Source of the DNA: Octopus sinensis
Lineage: Eukaryota
NCBI RefSeq assembly: GCF_006345805.1
Contig: NC_043010.1
Coordinates: 42,036,001-42,100,000 of the forward strand
Direction of reading: 5' to 3'
DNA: 64,000 nt
Part shown: positions 22,939 through 64,000 of the stretch, one piece after another
Layout of the letters: the number at the start of each line of letters is the position of its first letter
Position numbering within the stretch: the first letter of the stretch is position 1
The notes under the pieces: generated by a model
The model's input: the letters and a program-made list of their open reading frames with translations, nothing else
Told to the model about the DNA's origin: nothing
Database searches by the model: none
Made by a program: the position numbers and the translations under genes

Positions 22939-23200
22939 TTATATATAAACATATATAAAATCATTCACTTTATTGACTATATATATATATACATGAATGT
23001 ACACAATTACATAATGTATAGACTATATATAATATAATATGATATCACAAACATGCACATGATATAATGCACTCAGAATAGATATGTAAATAGATGATTT
23101 TTCGATTATATCTAATTATTTCATTCACTTTACTGTTGCGTGAAAATTAAGGACAGATCATAATGATATTTGCTCAGTAACACTTCAGTACCGAGTGAAA

Positions 23201-26200
23201 ATGGCAGACTCACACCCTAAGAAGACCAAAAATATCTCAACAAATCCAACATTTCCAGCCTCTCCATCACATGATGCACCCCCACATATAACTGTCAGTC
23301 CACCACCCCTTGCAACACCACCAGCAAAAGACTCACTACCATCAACATCATCATCATCATTAAAAGCATCATCAACAACGGTGACTACTGAGATTTCTAC
23401 TAGTGCCCGATTGGCAACATCAAGACAGTCTAGTAGTGTAGATTCATCTGCTTGTACAGAAAAATTGACAAGATCGTCGTCACAAAATGTTTCAAGTGTA
23501 AAACAATTACCTTCAGTATCAACTTCTTTGTCTGGAGCTAGTACTTCTTTTCAGACCAGGACTGGCACTGCCCCGAAACCCATAGCCAAACCTACCAGTT
23601 TGAGTCTGTATCGTCCCCTCGAAAATGGTGGGATCGGTTACAGTCTGAACGCCTCAAAACATTTTAAAGAAGGGGATAAAAAAGCGAAAAAAGGTGACAA
23701 AGAAGATTTAAATTCGAAATTTAAGCAAAAGACAAGACGTTGGTACTCAGCTGATCAAGAGCCAGAGTATTTTACAGAAAATGAAACACCGGAACAAACC
23801 CAACATAAGACTGAGTCTGAAAGTCACAAAGGAACTTTTAATAAAAGTAATAGTCTAGAAGAGGGCCAACAGAAGAGAGTTCTTGATAGAAGAGGTGCAT
23901 TCAAGTTTAATAAAAGCAAATTAAAAGGTGGCAGTCAGCAACGATGTAACACTAAAAAAGAAAAGGATAAAATGCAGAAAAGTAATAGTACAGATAATAA
24001 TTATGTTGGCGATGATGATGGTGATGTTGATCGTAATGATGATAAAAAAAAATCTAGTAGTGGCTGTATGCCTGGCTCAGGAAAACGTAAAAAGATCAAT
24101 CGTTATATTGGACATTTGGGGAGTAGCAATGAGGGAAGCGATGAAAGTGAAGGCTTCGAAAGTTCGGGCCGCGAACAGAAAGGAACTTTAAATCGACTGA
24201 GTAATAGTTTCAATCTTGGTTTACTTGGACTAGGGCTCGGCGCAACTCGTTCAAGCCAGAAAGATGAGAAAAAGAAAAAGTCTAGTAAGAAGAAAAAAGA
24301 GGATAATGAAAATAGTTGGTCTTTTAAAAGAAGGAAGCCAAAACGTAGCAAAAGTGAAGGATCGAATAGCAGTGACGGCACAGACACAGACGAGAGTTCG
24401 GCAACTACTTCAGAAAGTGGCTATCATAAAAGAAAAAAAGGTGGTATAGATCAAGCTCTCAGAAATACTGCCATAAGATCGGTAACAGAAATGATAACTG
24501 CAATACAAGCAATAGAGCTCCCGACTGTAACGCCATTTGATAGGAGGGAAGCGGTTCACAGATCCGAGAGCATGACTGAAAGAGAAGAGAGTTGGGATGA
24601 TGCTGGATGTCCTCATTTCGAAGAAATGTCTTCATGCACTCGATGTTATGAGAAGGAACATGACTGTAGAAATATTAATACTAATACAGAGCCAAGAGTT
24701 CCTTCACAGTCATTGTGGTTGTCGTACGATAACCGCAAACAAACTGACAATGAAGAAAGTTTGCGGTACGAAATACAAGAATCGGCAGAAAAACGAATGT
24801 CGCTAAAAGAACAATGGCTAAAGGAAAACAAACTAATAACATCCGAGCTTTTGTTACCCAAAACAATGCACCTAAAAACACCTCCTCCGGTCAGATCAAC
24901 TCAAGACGTCGGACAATTTCATAATAAAGCTATTTCTCAGGATAAATTTATTGCAGACCCAAAATCCTCAAAACCATCCCCTTTGTTAAATCCACAAGTA
25001 TCCTCTCCATCTTATGCGCTTGCGTACATTCATGAAAACTCTAAATCAAACAAGCAGGGGTCCGTACTTCCCCTAAGTCAAGCTTTAACATCAACAATGA
25101 AGGAACAACAGTCAAGTATAAAATACAAATATTCATCAAGCTCAGCTGGGTCTTCGTTGAACCCTCAAAATGTTACATCATCACAATCACTGATATCAAC
25201 CTTTCCGAATGTAATAACGAACCGAGAAAAGGGCATAGTTGAGAAAGAAAACGAAAAACTGGATTTTCACGGCGAAACACTTGAATCACAAAAACGTTTT
25301 CAAATGAAACATCCAAGTGAATTCCAAAACGAAGAAACTCTTGATAAATCATGTGAAAATAAAGAAAAGAAAAATGAAAAGAGCGAAGAGTATTCTGACA
25401 AGCAAAGTTGTAAGTTCTTTCAATCGAACAGTAAACCATCTCGAATACCCATCCTTACTCAAAGATCGTCGTCGGCCGAAGGATTTTATAGAAATAAACG
25501 AGTAGATTTGAAAAAATCAATGAGTATTGGTACAAGTGTTTCTAGAAGTGGAGACAGGTACGCAGATATGTTTGTTTCCCAAATTAAAACTGGTAAAGCA
25601 AGGGAACGACAAGTACCAATAAATTCGCCGGTCTACACTAATGCGACTAGTATGAGTGGCTGCAAACTCAAAACTGATAATGCTTGTACAGGGACGACGT
25701 TGTCAACTAATAAAACGGTTGTTTCTTCACTAGCTATGAATGTGTTGCCTCCTTCAGAAAACAGTATAAAATCCATTACAAGTACGTCTACTATTTCCTC
25801 TGATACTACAATACATACTATTGACAAAACCTATGCAAAAGATCAGGTATCTTCACTTACAGATCCAGCCGTATCATCTACTAATCATAGCAGCGGTGCA
25901 AGTGAAATTATTAACCTGAATAGCAAAGGTTCTGCTAGTGCCATTAATGTCTCTGCTAGTAGCAGAAGTGCCGGTACCGCAGATGGGAAATGCCACTATT
26001 ACGACGGTAGCAACAGCCACTGCCAACAGTCAGTCAATAGGACATATAAGCTAATACACAGATCACAATCTGGCAACGACAGCCTCTGCAAAGCGGCTCT
26101 ACTTCACGCTTCTAACGACAGCGAAAGGAGAAGTGATGTGTCTATTGTTGACAGTAGCACGGTTGACTTGCATGGAGCTATTGATGTCGCTGGCAGTGGA

Positions 26201-28218
26201 AGCTATGCGCAAGCAGAAATTGTTGCAACTGCAACGAAACCAACACGAGGAGCGGAGAGAAGGGAAAACAAAAGGTTAGAAGAGAATAGGAATGTAATTC
26301 AAAAACAATATGTGCAAACTTCAGCGACAACACAATCCTATCAACCACTTGTTACTAATGTTACCACTCAGCAGACTATCGGAGGAGGTTACCAACAGAC
26401 AATTAAAAAAACAGAGCAACATAAATATCAACAAAAACAACTAATTCTGCAACAGAACACGTCATGTTTACGATCATCAGCATCGTCAAACAGGGAGTTG
26501 GCATCTAGTTGTATCAAAGGACAAGATGGTGTTTATTTTGAGCCTGGAACATTTAATAAAACAGATATAGAACAAAGAGATTTTAATAGTATTAACAACA
26601 GAAGAATCAACATCAGTAACAATGGAACTGATTATACAAATGTATACTCCCGGGAGAGGCAGCAAGGGGCAAAATCAATCACATCCACTGATGGTACCGA
26701 TTCATTGGAGCGGTCCTGGAACCTTGATAATGGCCAGAATTTAAGTTCCACTCAAGAAACGAGTGATGTCCGAAATCCGAGGTATAAGTCACCAGAATTA
26801 AAGAAAACTAAGAATAATCTCAGTGAAGATAAATGTCAACACAGTCAACCGGATCAAATTAGCCGAAAGACTGCAGAGCCAAGTAATTACCCATTAGTTT
26901 GTACTGTTTATACTGCCGATGGTCTGGAAACCATTCCGATATATCCGTATTATATTAGTAACAGTACTGACGGCGGAGACTCGAACTATCAGGACAACTA
27001 CTCAAGTAGCTATCATTTTAATGTGGGAGATTCGAAACATACAGCTTCGTCGAAAATAGCTTTTACAAAATTAGTGGACTGTACAGAGGCTTCGTCCCAG
27101 ACCGAAACCACATCTCCAGCAATTAGTCAAGTATCGTCGATTAGTTCAACAGCTGGTACATCATCGAGAGCGGTGACAGTTTTAGCAGCATCTGCATTAG
27201 CAACCACCTCTTTAGCCGCTGCTACATCAGCCAGACGAACTAAAGCGTGTGCTGAAAAGAAGAAAAAACTACAAGAAACTATTCAACCATGTTCCGGTAA
27301 AATCACAACAAACCAAGGCGATGTGCGCTATAGCAACAGAACAGCATACCAGGTTTTCCATCCTGACAACAGCTCCAGTCACTTACCTACTACTGTAGCA
27401 TACGACTCTTGTCAGAACTTTCACAATGATAGCTGCTGGCCTGTAACCCACGTAGCTAAGAGTCAGGGCTTAAGTCACGCAGGGAATGCACCAGCCTTAG
27501 CAACTTACCGAACGAAGGAATCCAGTGAAGCCATACCAAATATTGTTTTGCCGAAAACAGTGTCTAAGGCAGACCACGTTGCTAGAAGTAATCGACGAAT
27601 TAGCTCAGCACCTTTACAACATCAAGAGACACCTTTAATTGCATCAGGTCATCAAAATTATTCTAATGTATATGCATACCCTCCTCCCCCACCCTATCCT
27701 CCCCCTCCTCTTCCGCTACCTTCTTCTCAGCATCCCTGCGCTTGCTCTCATCAATGTTTACAACCGTCGCGGCAATCGTGTTTACGGTTTAACAACAACG
27801 TTGACACAAACACATTAAATGCCCCGTTGTTGTCTAACACTAGCACGACTATAGCAGCAGCTACTAATATTACGTCTACGACTACACTTTCTGCTGGGGA
27901 TCTACTCAAAACAAACTGTCAAATAGAAACCGGAGACGATGGATTTACTTCGATATCTAACCATGGAAGACGAATGAAAATAAGTAATCATAATAATAAT
28001 AATAATAATAATAGTAATAATAATAATAATAATAATCCAAACAGATTTTGCAACGATAACTGGCAAAGCGCCTATAGCGATTCCCAAAAGATGTCATCGT
28101 CCCGAAAGCCCCCACGACGAACTCGAGTAATGGATCCACCTGTAAACTTTCACAATCGACGAGACAGGTCGTTTGGGTTTTTATCATTTCGTCTTGGAGG
28201 AACAGAGAAGAATTTCAG
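23201..28218 (+). CDS. Giant coding exon of an unidentified host gene; ~1670-aa Ser/Thr/Lys/Gln-rich, probably disordered protein region
   Basis: Uninterrupted 5-kb ORF in AT-rich DNA; AAAATGG start context at 23201; ends at CAG|GTAAAT donor (GT 28219-28220), with in-frame TAA at 28220-28222 if unspliced; basic NLS-like runs, PPPPPYPPPP, poly-N; no folded domain recognised. Confidence 0.85.
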
Positions 28219-28765
28219 GTAAATAAGAAGCAGAAATGCCACAGTTAAGGTTTACAATTTCTTATTTGAGCTGTTTTCTTCGTTTTGTGTGCCATGTGTT
28301 TTAATTTCAACTTTATATTTCAGAATTTTACTTCGTGTTTTGAAACTACCACTTTGTACTTCATATTATTTACATGTACACACGCGTGTACATGTACACA
28401 CACATACACACAGAATCTTATGTCAATATAGAATAAACAGTAAATATAATGCATGCAGGAGTGTGTGTGTGTGTATGTGTGTATGTGTGTGTGTGCGTGC
28501 TCGTGGAATGCAAGGAAGAGTGAGAACAAGCGGGTAGGGTAGGCTGACAAATTGAAAGATTGAGTGAGCGAGAGATGGTGAGAGACACTACGAGGGTTAC
28601 GTTTTGGTCAGTAATTGTCATACTTGTTCCGTACAATTACACAAGTTAAAATAAAATTATCAATACAACACATTAAAAATAAAGACAACCACAACCTAAG
28701 TGAAAATATTTATTCTTTTAATGTTATTATAAGTTGGGGTGAACCGCAGACGCCTACCCCCACTC

Positions 28766-57836: not shown

Positions 57837-58165
57837 ATTCATCACCTAATCAATTTTCTAGACATCCTACTGAGACCCTTGCTGAAATACATCAAAAGTT
57901 TTAATAGAGATAGTATAGATATGCATAATCACCTATCAAAAACAACTAACGAAGAGACATTATTGGTTTCCTTCGATGTCATTAATCTTTACACCAATAT
58001 CCCTCTCCCGCGTGACTAATGAATAGAAGCAATCAAATCCTGGTTGAAAAAGTACCATGAAGAACTCCCAGAACGCGTTAACCAGGATTTTATCATTGAA
58101 ATTTCGAAATTCAAACTTCAGAACAATTATTTCTTATTTGATGACACCTACTATCGGCAAAAATG
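57837..58165 (+). pseudogene. Penelope-like reverse transcriptase fragment
   Basis: FLDILLRPL..RDS.D..LVSFDVINLYTNIP, then in a shifted frame LQNNYFLFDDTYYRQ. Confidence 0.8.
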
Positions 58166-58170
58166 AGTAA

Positions 58171-58214
<44 letters not shown>

Positions 58215-58910
58215 TCGAAAAATACCTTAGGAATGAGAATTCGTCGCATACCTGTGATAAAAATAAGAAGTAGAGATAGATAAATAAAAATAAATAAATT
58301 TATATAAAGGTCATAGATACAAACACCATAAGAAGCGAGCCCATATACACACACAAATATACACACAATAACTTCATAGATAGCTGCAACAATATCAACA
58401 ACACGACTGACAACGACAGGGGCAGCGGTGGTGACAACGATGGCAATGACAACAACTACCACGATGGCAACGCCGTGGACGAACACACAAACACAGAGAG
58501 ATACAGGAACTGTACAAAATTTTTGGGTCCTAGGACAGCGGCAGCACGACGGGTTGTGATGATCGGGCCGACGGGAAGACAATAATGCTTCTAAGAGCAA
58601 TGACAGACACACACAAGCATACACGCATAAACACACATGCACACACACACATACGCGCGCTCGCACGCGCACACACACGCACGGACGCAAACGCATGCAC
58701 ACATAAGGATACACATATTAGAAGAGCAGAATGGAGTAATTGGAGCAAGAGCATACACGAAAACGAAATGTTACTGAAGAGGTCACAGATGTGTAACGAA
58801 AGATTTCCGGACAATGGACATGAGTTAAAATAAGAACAGTAATAATCGAGTAAAGAACAAATATATAGTGCGTGTGTTTATTTGGCAAAAAAAAACCACC
58901 GTCCCGAAAT

Positions 58911-58949
<39 letters not shown>

Positions 58950-58955
<6 letters not shown>

Positions 58956-59200
58956 AAAATGAGAAAATAGAGGGATAATTAAAAAAATATTATTCATTAA
59001 TTAAAAAATTGACAAGCATCCCTTACGGCTGTTTCAGTTCAGATCCTCAGAAAATTAATTAATTAAATTAAAAATTATTTGAAAATCGAATCCCTTCAGA
59101 GGCAGATAAAGATATACAAAACAGGTATTCAATTTCCTCATGTTGAATAAACGGCTGCAAACCGTTTACTGATAAAATTTATGCATAAATAACATAGTGT
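58950..59200 (-). mobile_element. Probable PLE pLTR end with degenerate long-stem-II hammerhead (about 59020-59103)
   Basis: - strand CCU-CUGAAGG..long AU-rich hairpin..GAAAC-agcc-GUA-AGG, running into (TA)n. Confidence 0.4.
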
Positions 59201-60166
59201 ACAAATGGTAGATCTCTTAGAAGGGGAGTAAGATTGTTTATAATGGAGTAGTAAAACAATATTTTCATCTGGAGCGTTGATTATAAGAAAGCTCAAGTAG
59301 ATGTAATTGGTAAAAGTGTGATATTGTGCTATAATATCTATTCTTATTAAACCAATATAAACTTAATATGTAGAGTTTAATTCAAATGTGTGTAGTTGCT
59401 AATATATAATTAAAGTTGAAGCTATTCAGGCAATCTATTACATATTATAAATATCGAAATAATTAAAAGACCAATATGAATATTGACTTGATGTTAGGAT
59501 ACATAAAAATTATAAATGGAAATAAATAAATCAAAATAAATACATCAAAATAGATAGAGTAAAGAGTGAAAACAGACAGAAAGAGAAAAATAAATAAATG
59601 AATAAAGAGTAATAGATTATTACGTATCACCCCTTAAAAATTTATTAGTGAGCTAGACTAATAAAGATAAAGAACTATTGAGCAAACTTTACTTTAAAGA
59701 TTTCAGATATGCAGCGTTTGTATAGTGAAATACCGGGTGTAAATATGTTAAGTTGCTACGGTACGGAGATATGATATTTAACATGAATAAATAAATACAA
59801 AAATAGGAATTAAATGGAATAAAAATATGCTAATAAAAGTGATAATGAGGGCTTAAATATGGGTCAATTCAACAAGTTAGATTAAAATTTACTAATAAAA
59901 ATATATAAATAGTTAAATATAAATCTCAAAAACCGGAAGTAAATATTCATATAGAGGTGAATGGCTAAAGAAAATCTAGGAATAATCTAATTTAGGGACA
60001 TACCAAAGCGAAAACAGGTAAAACTAAATAATTATTTTCTCATATTATTATTATTATTATTATAAATTAATACATATAAACTCCGGTTTATATAGTTACC
60101 TTGCCGTTGAGTATTCAATAGGATTTTGCTATCCCTGAATGAGGTTTGTAGCTTTTAATTGTGGTT

Positions 60167-60199
<33 letters not shown>

Positions 60200-60317
60200 T
60201 AATATTGGGACAGTGTATAATTTCTTTTTAAAAATATCCCTTCATGAAACTAATGTCTACATTATTATTTTTTCTGTGACCTATTTATTTTATTTTCAAT
60301 ATTATTTGCGTTGTCAA

Positions 60318-60525
60318 GGCGGTGAGCTGGCAGAATCGCTTGAATACTAAGACAAATGCTTGCCAGTATTTCGTCTTTTACGTTCTGAGTTTAAATGCCA
60401 CCGAGTTCGATTTTGCCTTTCATCTTTTCGGGGTCGTTAAAATAAGTACCAGTTGAACACTGGGATCGATGTAATCGACTATTTCATTACTCCGAAATTG
60501 CTGGCCTTGTGCCAATATTTGAAAT
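60318..60525 (+). mobile_element. SINE family A with tail B
   Basis: GGCGGTGAGCTGGCAGAATCG head; GGCCTTGTGCCAATATTTGAAA end. Confidence 0.75.
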
Positions 60526-61476
60526 AAATAGTATTCGCGTAATTTTCGAAAGTCGTGCTCAATAAAATTTTAATATTTTGCCCAACTTTAAAAATTCCAC
60601 CAACCCAGTGCCCTTCATTGATAGGATAAAGACAGAGTTCAACTCGACGGGATTTGAACTCAGAACGTTTTAACCTATCTTCTAACCCCTTTGCCGATTC
60701 GCTCAATTCAGTTGATATGTTGTAGAAAATGCGATGATTCCTTCTATGTTATAGGTATTTATCTCTGCATGATATATTAAATATCATGCATAATGTTTAC
60801 AGAAAATCATTAAATAGAAAAAGCGAAACGAAGCAGATGCACAAGAATATCGATATGTACTCTTTATATAGACGACACAAGATGAAAGCAGATTAAAATT
60901 TTATAAAAGACTATTATACCGTATGCACCATAATTTAGAAACGCACGTCAAGTAGAAGTCAGTGTTAATAGAAATTGAAAGGTGTTTAAATTGGAATGTG
61001 TCAGATACTTCATACGAAGAAAGTGACTATCTAAACTGACTGGGAGAACAATTCACCTTTCTGTATCACCCCAGATAATCATGAAATTTCGTACTGCTTG
61101 AACTAAGAGGAGATTTTCTTTTCATTTGCTGCGTACGGAAAGGAGATAATGTACTGAAATGGTTTGTCCAAATTGCTACCAACATGAAATCAATTTACTT
61201 ATTGCCACACAAGCAGACAGTCATCGGTTACAGAACAACAGAAGTTGATAAGTAGCAAGAAAACAAATATTGTATAGATGTTATTACTTTGGCAAATCAT
61301 GTATTTAACATGTCACTGAGAGGGTTATTTGATGAACTGTATGGTAATCGCGCATGTAGATGTCTAATTGCTCTACAGAATGGACAGTTCTACAAAACGA
61401 AATTGATGAATTACCTGAATGCTCGAGAAACGCATTTATAAATGCTACACTTTCATAGTCGATATTTGGTTACGTA

Positions 61477-61996
61477 AAGGCGGCAAGCTAGCAGAAACAT
61501 TTGCACGCCGGGCGAAATGCCTAGCAGTATTTCGTCTGCCGTCACATTCTGAGTTCAAATTCCACCGAGGTCGACTTTGCCTTTCATCCTTTCGGAGTCG
61601 ATATAATCGACTTAATCCGTCTGTCTGTCCTTGTTTGTCCCTTCGGTGTTTAGCCCCTTGTGGGTAGTAAAGAAATGGGTATTTGGTCTGCTGCTACGTT
61701 CTGAGTACAAATTCTGCCGAGGTCGACTTTGCCTTCATCCTTTCGAGGTCGATTAAATAAATACCAGTTACGTACTGGGGTCCTTATAATCGACTTAATC
61801 CGTTTGTCTGTCCTTGTGTTTAGCCCCTTGTGGGTAGTAAAGAAATAGGTATTTCGTCTGCCGCTACGTTCTGAGTTCAAATTCCGTCGAAGTCACTTTT
61901 GCCGTTCATCCTATCGAGGTCGATAAATTAAGTACCAGTTACGTACTGGAGTCGATCTAATCTAAATTTCGGGCCTTTAGCCTAGAGTAGAAAAAT
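61477..61996 (+). mobile_element. Head-to-tail trimer of SINE family A inside one 15-bp TSD
   Basis: ATATTTGGTTACGTA at 61462-61476 and 61997-62011; two tail-A units then a tail-B unit. Confidence 0.85.
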
Positions 61997-62326
61997 ATAT
62001 TTGGTTACGTATATTTCTGGTATTTGTCTTACATTAAAATATTTTAATATTTATTCGCCATTATGTTGACATATTTGATAAGCCGGGAATCTATCTTAAC
62101 CACTTTATCTATCAGTCACTCACACACAGATGTACATACATATATATGTATAATACGCACACATGCATACACACACTCTGTCTCACACACTTTACTGTAA
62201 CCTCGAGATTTCTGTCTATACAATTAATTAATTTCTCTCGCCTTCTTTATATGTCTGCGTGCGTGTGCATGTATAAGGGTGCTTGTGCTTGCATGTGTCC
62301 TTATGTGTGTGTGCTTGTATGTGATA

Positions 62327-62391
<65 letters not shown>

Positions 62392-62397
<6 letters not shown>

Positions 62398-62678
62398 TAC
62401 AAAATTGGACAAGAACGCAAAACATCCGGACAGTTAGGTGATACAAAAATGGGACAACCAAACATCCAGAGAGACGATACAAAGAAAACAAGGACGGGTC
62501 ATTCGAAGTTTTCTTTCCTCGGTCAAGTACCAGATTATCTTCGCAATTTCGGCTGATTATACTTGAGATTGCTCCAATCTGGCCAGCCCCAAGGAAAAAC
62601 TAAGCTAAGAGCATTAGATTCCTTGGAAGAAAGCAGCGAATGTATACAAAAACAAGGACGTAAAAAAACGGACAATGT
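62392..62678 (-). mobile_element. Short element inserted in (TA)n, probably PLE-pLTR-like, carrying a highly structured RNA motif
   Basis: (TA)n on both sides; no real ORF; multiple perfect helices; class inferred by analogy to other TA-embedded elements here. Confidence 0.5.
62481..62626 (-). ncRNA. Candidate strand-permuted hammerhead-like ribozyme
   Basis: Core pieces CCGAGGA, GAAA and AUC each adjoin their correct helix (I UCAAGUA/UACUUGA, II GGCUG/CAGCC, III AUUGC/GCAAU) but in non-canonical order. Confidence 0.45.
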
Positions 62679-62831
62679 TATATATATATAAGAATTTGCA
62701 GAGTCGTTAGAGAGGTTGAAGTATTTGACGTGTGCTCTCAAGTTTAAATCCCTACGATTACAATTCTGCCTTTATTCTTGGGTGTATCAGTCGATATTGC
62801 ATTTCTCTCTCTCTTTATTCTCCTCTCTCTT

Positions 62832-62869
<38 letters not shown>

Positions 62870-63107
62870 AGAAATTAGTGGTTATGGTTAGATTTGGTGA
62901 TGAATGAGATTCGCCATATTTAATTGGTCAATGCACACTGTATTGTTACGACCATAACTAACTTAACGCAGGTGTTATGGTTCATTAATATCATTAATAT
63001 CATTTAATTATAAAGTGGAGAGCCCACAGCATCTAGGTTCGTGACCATATATGCAATATTGTATAATTATATACAAAGGCAAAAAGTGATGCTGTATATT
63101 ATAACCT

Positions 63108-63301
63108 ATTTACTCTTTACTCTTTTACTTGTTTCAGTCATTTGACTGTGGCCATGCTGGAGCATCGCCTTTAGGCCTCATTCTCTGTAAGCCTAGTACT
63201 TATTCTATCGGTCTCTTTTGCCGAACTGCTAAGTTACGGGGACGTAAACACACCAGCATCGGTTGTCAAGCGATGTTGGAGGAACAAACACAGACACACA
63301 A

Positions 63302-63366
<65 letters not shown>

Positions 63367-63531
63367 TACGACGGGCTTCTTTCAGTTTCCGTCTGCCAAA
63401 TCCACCCACAAGGCTTTATTCGGCCCGAGGCTATAGTAGAAGACACTTGTCCAAGATGCCACGCAGTGGGACTGAACCCAGAACCATGTGATTGGTAAGC
63501 AAGCTACTTACCACACAGCCACTCCTACGCC
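63108..63531 (-). mobile_element. SINE family C, full length, with internal (TA)n(TG)n microsatellite
   Basis: Head GGCGTAGGAGTGGCTGTGTGG, B-box-like GGTTCAGTCCC, tail (GAGTAAAA)n. Confidence 0.85.
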
Positions 63532-64000
63532 TATATTTGTGTAAGTTTTGTGCTAATTCCTTCATTCTTGAATACATTATTATGTTTCTAATAACACTTT
63601 AGTACAGAGTAAATCCATAGATTTTGACTACAACCCCACTGCGTTTATAAATTAATTAGATTTATTGGAAACATTCTATAATTGTAACGTCCGTCGCGTT
63701 TATACAATCTTACTGTGGACAGGAAGAGTGGGATCGTCTGGACCCCAGCCTAAAACGTCATTACATTCTTGTAACAATTCATTACCATACTCGTAGCTGA
63801 CCACTGTGAAAGTGTCTTTAAAGCCACTATTATTAAGCATATAGCTGAATCGGCTAGACGGATATGAATATTTGACGTAGTTGCTGTTAGTAAATAAATT
63901 ACTGGTGCGTCAGTGGCGTATATTTTTATTACTAAAATTAACTATTGGATAACTCCATAACTTTTAGCCATCACAGTATTTATAAATTTAGTAAATTTCT

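Follow-up and report, generated by a model that had tools for sequence, protein, structure and literature searches.

Non-circularly permuted hammerhead ribozymes were described by Eckert et al. in 2023 (PMC10085705), who placed type SGC (HRIMA-1) and type CSG in a six-type scheme. Both types cleave in vitro, and all four helices are required (PMC10085705). We analysed a window of 64,000 nucleotides from Octopus sinensis (the whole stretch, positions 42,036,001 to 42,100,000 of contig NC_043010.1, assembly GCF_006345805.1) and found a related motif on its minus strand, within a truncated copy of a dispersed repeat that we call family A. With a probability of roughly three in four, this motif is a hammerhead of S-G-C order opened between A9 and G10.1, lies at the 3' end of a Penelope-like retroelement (PLE) of the Naiad type, one that is likely non-autonomous, and would cleave the RNA to which it belongs in cis, 3' of C17 (window positions 62567/62566).

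This split motif shares with types SGC and CSG the S-G-C ring order, the canonical core and a helix that connects the remaining strands of stems I and II at their far ends. The linker from the stem I 3' strand to the stem II 3' strand measures 3 nt in those types and 4 nt here. The ring order, the short I-II linker and the bridging helix are thus all present in the motif, but an intact block C, with the stem II 5' strand directly after CUGANGA, is not. Block C of types SGC and CSG runs without a break from the stem I strand through CUGANGA to the stem II strand, and the authors assumed that it could not be interrupted (PMC10085705), whereas here it is open at A9/G10.1. Unlike in those types, both outer links are present, and a helix (P0) and a hairpin (H1) close the gap. 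The published RNAs came from metatranscriptomes and metagenomes, with only one GCS candidate from known organisms, whereas the split motifs reside in animal retroelements. The split motif is a further opening of the published S-G-C ring and lies outside the six-type scheme. The initial annotation of the site had suggested a new topology; as the ring order is already published (PMC10085705), what is new is the place at which a known ring is opened, and not the topology as a whole. The opening at A9/G10.1 itself was not found in Rfam or in the literature, and neither were Naiads tied to non-circular hammerheads, in a search from which subscription papers were mostly absent and which took in two preprints of 2026 and PMC11300833.

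The discontinuous Clec2 hammerhead reportedly has its insertion in a stem loop and not in the core; it resembles the split motif in its long-range assembly but differs in this place of insertion. De la Pena and Flores are said to have described, in 2001, hammerheads in which A9 is followed by one additional residue. Such CUGANGA+1 cores, which occur in rows of File S2, indicate that the A9/G10.1 joint is tolerant, but their backbone is continuous, unlike that of the split form. The type I minimal hammerheads of the pseudo-long terminal repeats of PLEs and of metazoan non-LTR retrozymes (PMC4209133; PMC7229834; bioRxiv 10.64898/2026.07.22.740005) likewise belong to non-autonomous, tandem-forming, PLE-dependent repeats. 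They have the ordinary C-G-S order, a weak stem III and a proposed dimer action, whereas the present motif has a pseudoknot and a full stem III.

Strand order and core letters of the motif

Coordinates below are window positions on the minus strand, and hammerhead numbering is used. Every segment claimed by the initial annotation, flanking hairpins included, was found in its place by direct reading of the sequence. From 5' to 3', the chain begins with hairpin H1 (62589..62626; seen in the sequence, in folding and in both alignments, A1 and A2, described below), which ends directly 5' of G10.1. The stem II 5' strand GGCUG follows (62584..62588), in which G10.1 is position 62588 and has no link to A9, as judged from the two alignments and the count of stem II partners, and then the helix B 5' strand CCAGAUU (62576..62582), which bridges stems I and II and corresponds to 'I' of Eckert et al. 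Block S (62560..62572) consists of the stem III 3' strand GCAAU (62572-62568), C17 (62567) and the stem I 3' strand UCAAGUA (62566-62560), and the cut predicted by analogy falls within it, at 62567/62566. A 4-nt linker (62559-62556) leads from stem I to block G (62543..62555), made up of the stem II 3' strand CAGCC (62555-62551), G12-A13-A14 (62550-62548) and the stem III 5' strand AUUGC (62547-62543). After a 6-nt loop come the helix B 3' strand AAUCUGG (62530..62536; seen in the sequence and in alignment A1) and block C without its stem II strand (62516..62529), namely the stem I 5' strand UACUUGA (62529-62523) and the C3-A9 core, here CCGAGGA (62522-62516). The 3' part can be abbreviated as II5'-B-S-G-B-I5'-CUGANGA, with the ring order S-G-C and the opening between A9 and G10.1.

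The cyclic order C-G-S of types I, II and III is therefore not the one observed, and the claim of a different order held both in the sequence and in the scored motifs. G12-A13-A14 sits between stem II (G10.1-C11.1) and stem III (A15.1-U16.1), and N17 is not G, as hammerhead rules demand; the C3-A9 core lies directly 3' of the stem I strand, again as in hammerheads, in the family form CUGAGGA. One helix had been absent from the initial annotation. The P0 5' strand (62627..62632, minus strand) pairs with 62515-62510, and the pairing covaries; its 3' strand (62510..62515, minus strand) stands directly 3' of A9, so that P0 joins the bases directly after A9 to those directly before H1. The same 3' strand is also the 5' arm of an alternative hairpin (62515-62482) restricted to family A. 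The downstream hairpin H2, AAGAAAAC/GUUUUCUU, was rejected as a part of the fold: it is not conserved, occurs in family A only and cannot form in subfamily B. The 'off' pairing that had been suggested as an alternative state failed as a conserved feature in the same way, as subfamily B cannot form it.

A descriptor for the split order with a relaxed core gave a single match, with 28 pairs, on both strands of the window, whereas 30 shuffles that preserved the dinucleotides of the window yielded two matches in all, one of 15 pairs and one of 18. Plain folding of the site is unremarkable (z = -1.19), as would be expected of a pseudoknot. Rfam returned no hammerhead match at E<=5 for positions 58000-64000, and no match at the gathering score among 7 loci of six families; standard descriptors indeed miss the motif, as had been anticipated. 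The layouts of HDV-like (hepatitis delta virus), twister, pistol and hatchet ribozymes do not fit the helix order.

Position 62521, which gives the U4C change in the window, is T in 30 of 32 aligned family A copies; among the 100 matches listed of 236 genome-wide, it is T in 94 and C in 6. The family A core is the canonical CUGAGGA and the U4C of the window a minority variant, which settles the check on the consensus core that had been proposed. U4C lowers in vitro activity considerably, yet viroid infectivity remains possible (PMC3088659). The window copy is therefore best seen as a decayed insertion and, being truncated and carrying U4C, would cut more slowly than the family form.

Recurrence and covariation in other families

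The pattern GAAA followed by CUGANGA 21-27 nt later matched the genome 30,642 times, against 2,019 times for the reversed control. Ten of the first 30 matches score as intact split-SGC motifs, and most of the others look truncated or decayed by eye. When 195 motifs, taken from 843 kb of loci, were clustered, they fell into several families whose helix letters differ. Subfamily B has the core CUGAAGA and is changed on both sides in two helix B pairs and one stem I pair.

Covariation was scored in two alignments. Alignment A1 holds 24 sequences picked for full length and diversity (the window, 19 of the 94 motifs of cluster 0, two of the five of cluster 5, and two singletons), and alignment A2 holds 27 motifs (8/11, 9/10, 7/8 and 1/2 from four clusters, and two singletons), excluding those truncated or deleted in the 5' part. 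In A1, 88.0% of the cells are paired and 16 of the 38 pairs are changed on both sides; the corresponding values for A2 are 87.7% and 16 of 24. Cells changed on both sides number 56 in A1 and 96 in A2, against 23.4 and 37.1 after shuffling, and the covariation scores (0.220 against 0.143 in A1; 0.430 against 0.233 in A2) were reached in 0 of 500 shuffles each, counts that are not probabilities because the sequences are related and hand-picked and their core was imposed by the search pattern. In the slid control the score was at most 0.105 for A1 and 0.163 for A2. Three of the seven helix B pairs are changed on both sides in A1; the helix is unscored in A2 because of gaps. For P0, the weakest helix of A1 (79.6% paired), the changes on both sides affect 3/6 pairs in A1 and 3/5 in A2. 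Compensatory changes between subfamilies were found in stems I, II and III, helix B, H1 and P0. Stems I, II and III thus covary as in a hammerhead, within related, hand-picked sequences. Of the six helices for which covariation had been put forward as a check, these three stems, B and H1 passed, whereas the downstream hairpin did not.

Some positions were not imposed by the search. Among the 51 sequences, U16.1 is kept in 50, N17 is never G, and G10.1 is present in 43. These positions lie outside the search pattern and yet obey hammerhead rules, and they therefore support the proposed hammerhead; the cut site named in the initial annotation, 62567/62566, is upheld as a prediction by analogy. 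The upstream strand forms 4-5 of the 5 Watson-Crick stem II pairs in 45/51 sequences, whereas the strand after A9 never forms more than 3 of 5 (>=4 in 0/51). This bears out the claim that the chain is open at A9/G10.1. The fold is very probably real and under selection.

In families C and E (L045 2781-2960, minus strand; L128 1468-1646, minus strand), the AGGGG strand that follows A9 and forms P0 could also make a weak stem II that includes G-U pairs; such loci may stand midway between SGC and the split form. Another repeat, with GAAA...CCCCAAGACAC-CUGANGA (L189 4392-4571, plus strand; L029 3038-3150, minus strand; L227 near 2070, plus strand), does not parse as the split form and is possibly an ordinary PLE hammerhead family.

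The carrier element and its probable relation to Naiads

The window copy of family A (62394..62680, minus strand) is truncated at its 5' end and comprises the 3' ~290 nt of a non-coding dispersed repeat of ~0.8 kb. A (TA)n microsatellite adjoins the 3' end of the element (62327..62393) and, from the sequence and the comparison of copies, is the probable insertion target; (TA)5 lies left of the truncated 5' end (62681..62690). All 40 scored matches are 97-100% identical, and there are 2393 candidates in the 2.72-Gb genome. Longer copies extend for about 600-650 nt on the 5' side of the predicted cut and have a CT-rich body in which a coding frame is not recognisable. Copies that are 5'-truncated, partially tandem or inverted at the 5' side occur, as do (TA)n targets. 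Such copy forms are structural marks of PLEs, and (TA)n is the usual target of Naiads (PMC8557442). Family A carries all these Naiad marks, so the PLE context given in the initial annotation was correct, although the connection to Naiads was missed there. The coding partner of family A was not found in the 5' extension, in long open frames of loci L123-L192 or in 17 loci bearing reverse transcriptase (RT), a set that covered 12 of 20 selected distant RT matches. For this reason, we placed family A among Naiads by its architecture and the common ribozyme layout, and it is likely a non-autonomous Naiad-type PLE.

Two further features of the repeats were noticed. In loci L008 and L022 (around 1650-1890), inverted copies meet head to head at a short inverted junction, as PLE insertions typically do. 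Families A and B both start with a short conserved leader in which a perfect splice-donor motif, GTAAGT, precedes a long CT-rich tract (L054 620-660 and 1515-1555, plus strand); this is reminiscent of the intron reported in the 5' UTR of Penelope and Chlamys (PMC8557442).

Naiads were reported by Craig et al. in 2021 to lack canonical hammerheads, some being flagged 'HHR_core' or 'HHR_half_core' (PMC8557442). We surveyed their 54 consensi in File S5 of that paper with four exact core spellings and judged the passages by eye. At least 17 of the 54 have the ring order, with at least 10 split, at least 6 of type CSG and at least 1 SGC-like; the survey misses motifs broken by line ends, and 13 CUGAAGA, 10 CUGAGGA and 3 CUGAUGA occurrences at later places stand outside the count, as do passages with CUGACGA or CUGAAGA cores in file parts 16-19 that are ambiguous by eye. 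The split Naiads include Naiad_Bfor (with a stem I of 2 bp only), Amil, Aacu, Anas, Obim and Ovul, whose helix letters are unrelated, and four more in file parts 9, 12, 12 and 19; P0 and H1 are clear in several. The uninterrupted type CSG was seen in the nematode range (Naiad-1, -2 and -3_Nbra among the at least six), and the SGC-like Naiad is in file part 17. Four bivalve Naiads show no CUGANGA in the 3' ends given. Their 3' untranslated regions (file parts 20-21) have in common a conserved GC-rich motif with possible pseudoknot pairing, which may be another ribozyme or an RT-binding fold.

A 17-mer taken from the 3' end published for Naiad_Ovul/Obim gave 444 exact matches in the genome, against 0 for the control, a result that would in itself point to an octopus as the source. 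The motifs found in this way (family D) have the split layout and lie downstream of RT-like remnants, judged by eye, at 3 of 17 loci, one of which is the query's own. The putative tie to an element encoding an N-terminal GIY-YIG plus RT comes through family D only, by these remnants and the Naiad_Ovul/Obim match. Family A resembles Naiads in its (TA)n targets, 5' truncation, partial tandems and inverted 5' copies (PMC8557442) and, as in Naiad_Obim, Naiad_Ovul and others, in the ribozyme layout at its 3' end; it differs in being non-coding and ~0.8 kb long. Since the same layout occurs in several unrelated element families here and in published Naiads of other animals, the split motif is likely the ribozyme that Naiads were reported to lack.

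Predicted cleavage and alternative readings

The RNA would fold in cis into a standard hammerhead active site. Stems I and II would be clamped by helix B and by the short linker between them, a task that falls to the loop-loop contact in ordinary hammerheads, and P0 (from A9 on) and H1 (up to G10.1) would keep both free ends together and stand in for the covalent A9-G10.1 link. One cut per unit in tandem read-through transcripts would yield unit-length RNA, possibly circularised, which the Naiad RT/GIY-YIG protein could copy into (TA)n sites, past the unit junction, giving partial tandems. Six family B loci have one common short unit junction, perhaps because the templates, tandem or circular RNA, would span it, as retrozymes suggest (PMC7229834). 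Cleavage in cis is considered likely.

Several observations weigh against this proposal. A search across sequencing runs listed no RNA run that contains the site. Three RNA-sequencing runs (1069, 1052 and 807 reads, mostly 85-95% alike, with both directions equal and in effect unstranded) and one contig set gave coverage, yet ends did not accumulate at the predicted site (1564/1565 in locus L006), in a weak test with fragmented unstranded reads and many decayed copies. The 5' ends of copies range over -25 to +28, and not one coincides with the predicted site, also a weak test, from which no rate can be derived because the list contains duplicates (two references) and overlapping loci. Every genomic copy retains the whole ribozyme at its 3' end, and therefore some templates must span the cut site. 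Family A has a weak P0, of -2.1 kcal/mol, and the competing hairpin outscores the P0 fold in a nested model (-25.5 against -21.3); P0 therefore rests on comparison and not on energy. Besides the limits of the shuffle counts given above, the invariance of the core in A1 and A2 is circular, the sequences being pattern-selected. An evenly spread 200-kb genome sample contained 0 split matches, with ~2 expected. Pfam gave nothing above threshold on four RT remnants, and for family A itself an RT-coding partner was not found. The literature search also yielded no test of a hammerhead lacking the A9-G10.1 link.

An alternative is that the fold is real and selected but cuts no longer or only negligibly, its 3' structure being recognised by the element's RT and its core letters kept for structural reasons. 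The absent end signals in RNA reads and copy 5' ends, the wholeness of the motif in all copies and the missing A9-G10.1 link agree with such a fold, as do the poor in vitro cleavage of PLE minimal hammerheads (PMC4209133) and the four bivalve Naiads without CUGANGA in the 3' ends shown. However, the catalysis-relevant U16.1, non-G N17 and G10.1-C11.1 are kept across families that have no helix letters in common, the nematode Naiads have type CSG without interruption, for which cleavage has been demonstrated (PMC10085705), and fragmented, unstranded RNA sequencing of many decayed copies is a weak test. We regard a non-cutting fold as unlikely.

It is far less probable that the active form is a dimer or an assembly between tandem copies, as the initial annotation had suggested. 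Partial tandems are common, and the minimal hammerheads of metazoan PLEs were proposed to act as dimers (PMC4209133), but stem III here has at least 5 bp (5 bp in the window), all partner strands lie within 75 nt, and tandem units are ~0.8 kb apart. Nor could a neighbouring copy restore the A9-G10.1 link, as in no sequence does stem II draw on the strand that follows A9 (0/51; at most 3/5 pairs), and the suggestion of a dimer was dropped. Chance complementarity in an AT-rich repeat, with which the unremarkable folding z-score and the lack of an Rfam match would agree, has a negligible probability in view of the descriptor against shuffles, the pattern against its control, the hammerhead rules kept at positions not imposed, the reappearance of the layout, spelled with other letters, in further phyla, and the covariation across families, which already contradicts it.

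Returning to the split hammerhead, the data from all families and published consensi can be joined in one reading, which we consider reasonably probable. Naiads across animal phyla would use a ring-permuted hammerhead opened at three places, as CSG in nematodes, as SGC in at least one arthropod, and at A9/G10.1 in ctenophore, cnidarian, crustacean and octopus elements. The split form would be the first natural cis-cleaving hammerhead without a covalent CUGANGA-stem II link, held by the P0/H1 junction and numbering roughly 10^4 in this genome, and the openings would record interconversion via circular or tandem RNA templates. Naiads are among the most abundant invertebrate retroelements, and an RNA of 110 nt would answer the stated puzzle of their lacking canonical hammerheads. 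Non-circular RNA permutations would move from rare environmental contigs to animal genomes at high copy number, the assumption of an uninterruptible CUGANGA block would be broken, and the different openings suggest how permutations interconvert. Descriptor-based ribozyme censuses of animal genomes would then be missing a large class, and a core assembled from two free ends may offer a new handle for ribozyme switch design.

Two other features of the window were noted. An open frame of 1692 codons (23144-28222, plus strand) matches no Pfam family and is probably a large single exon or a repeat-rich gene. Another abundant repeat, resembling a short interspersed element and common to many loci, occupies 63106-63548.
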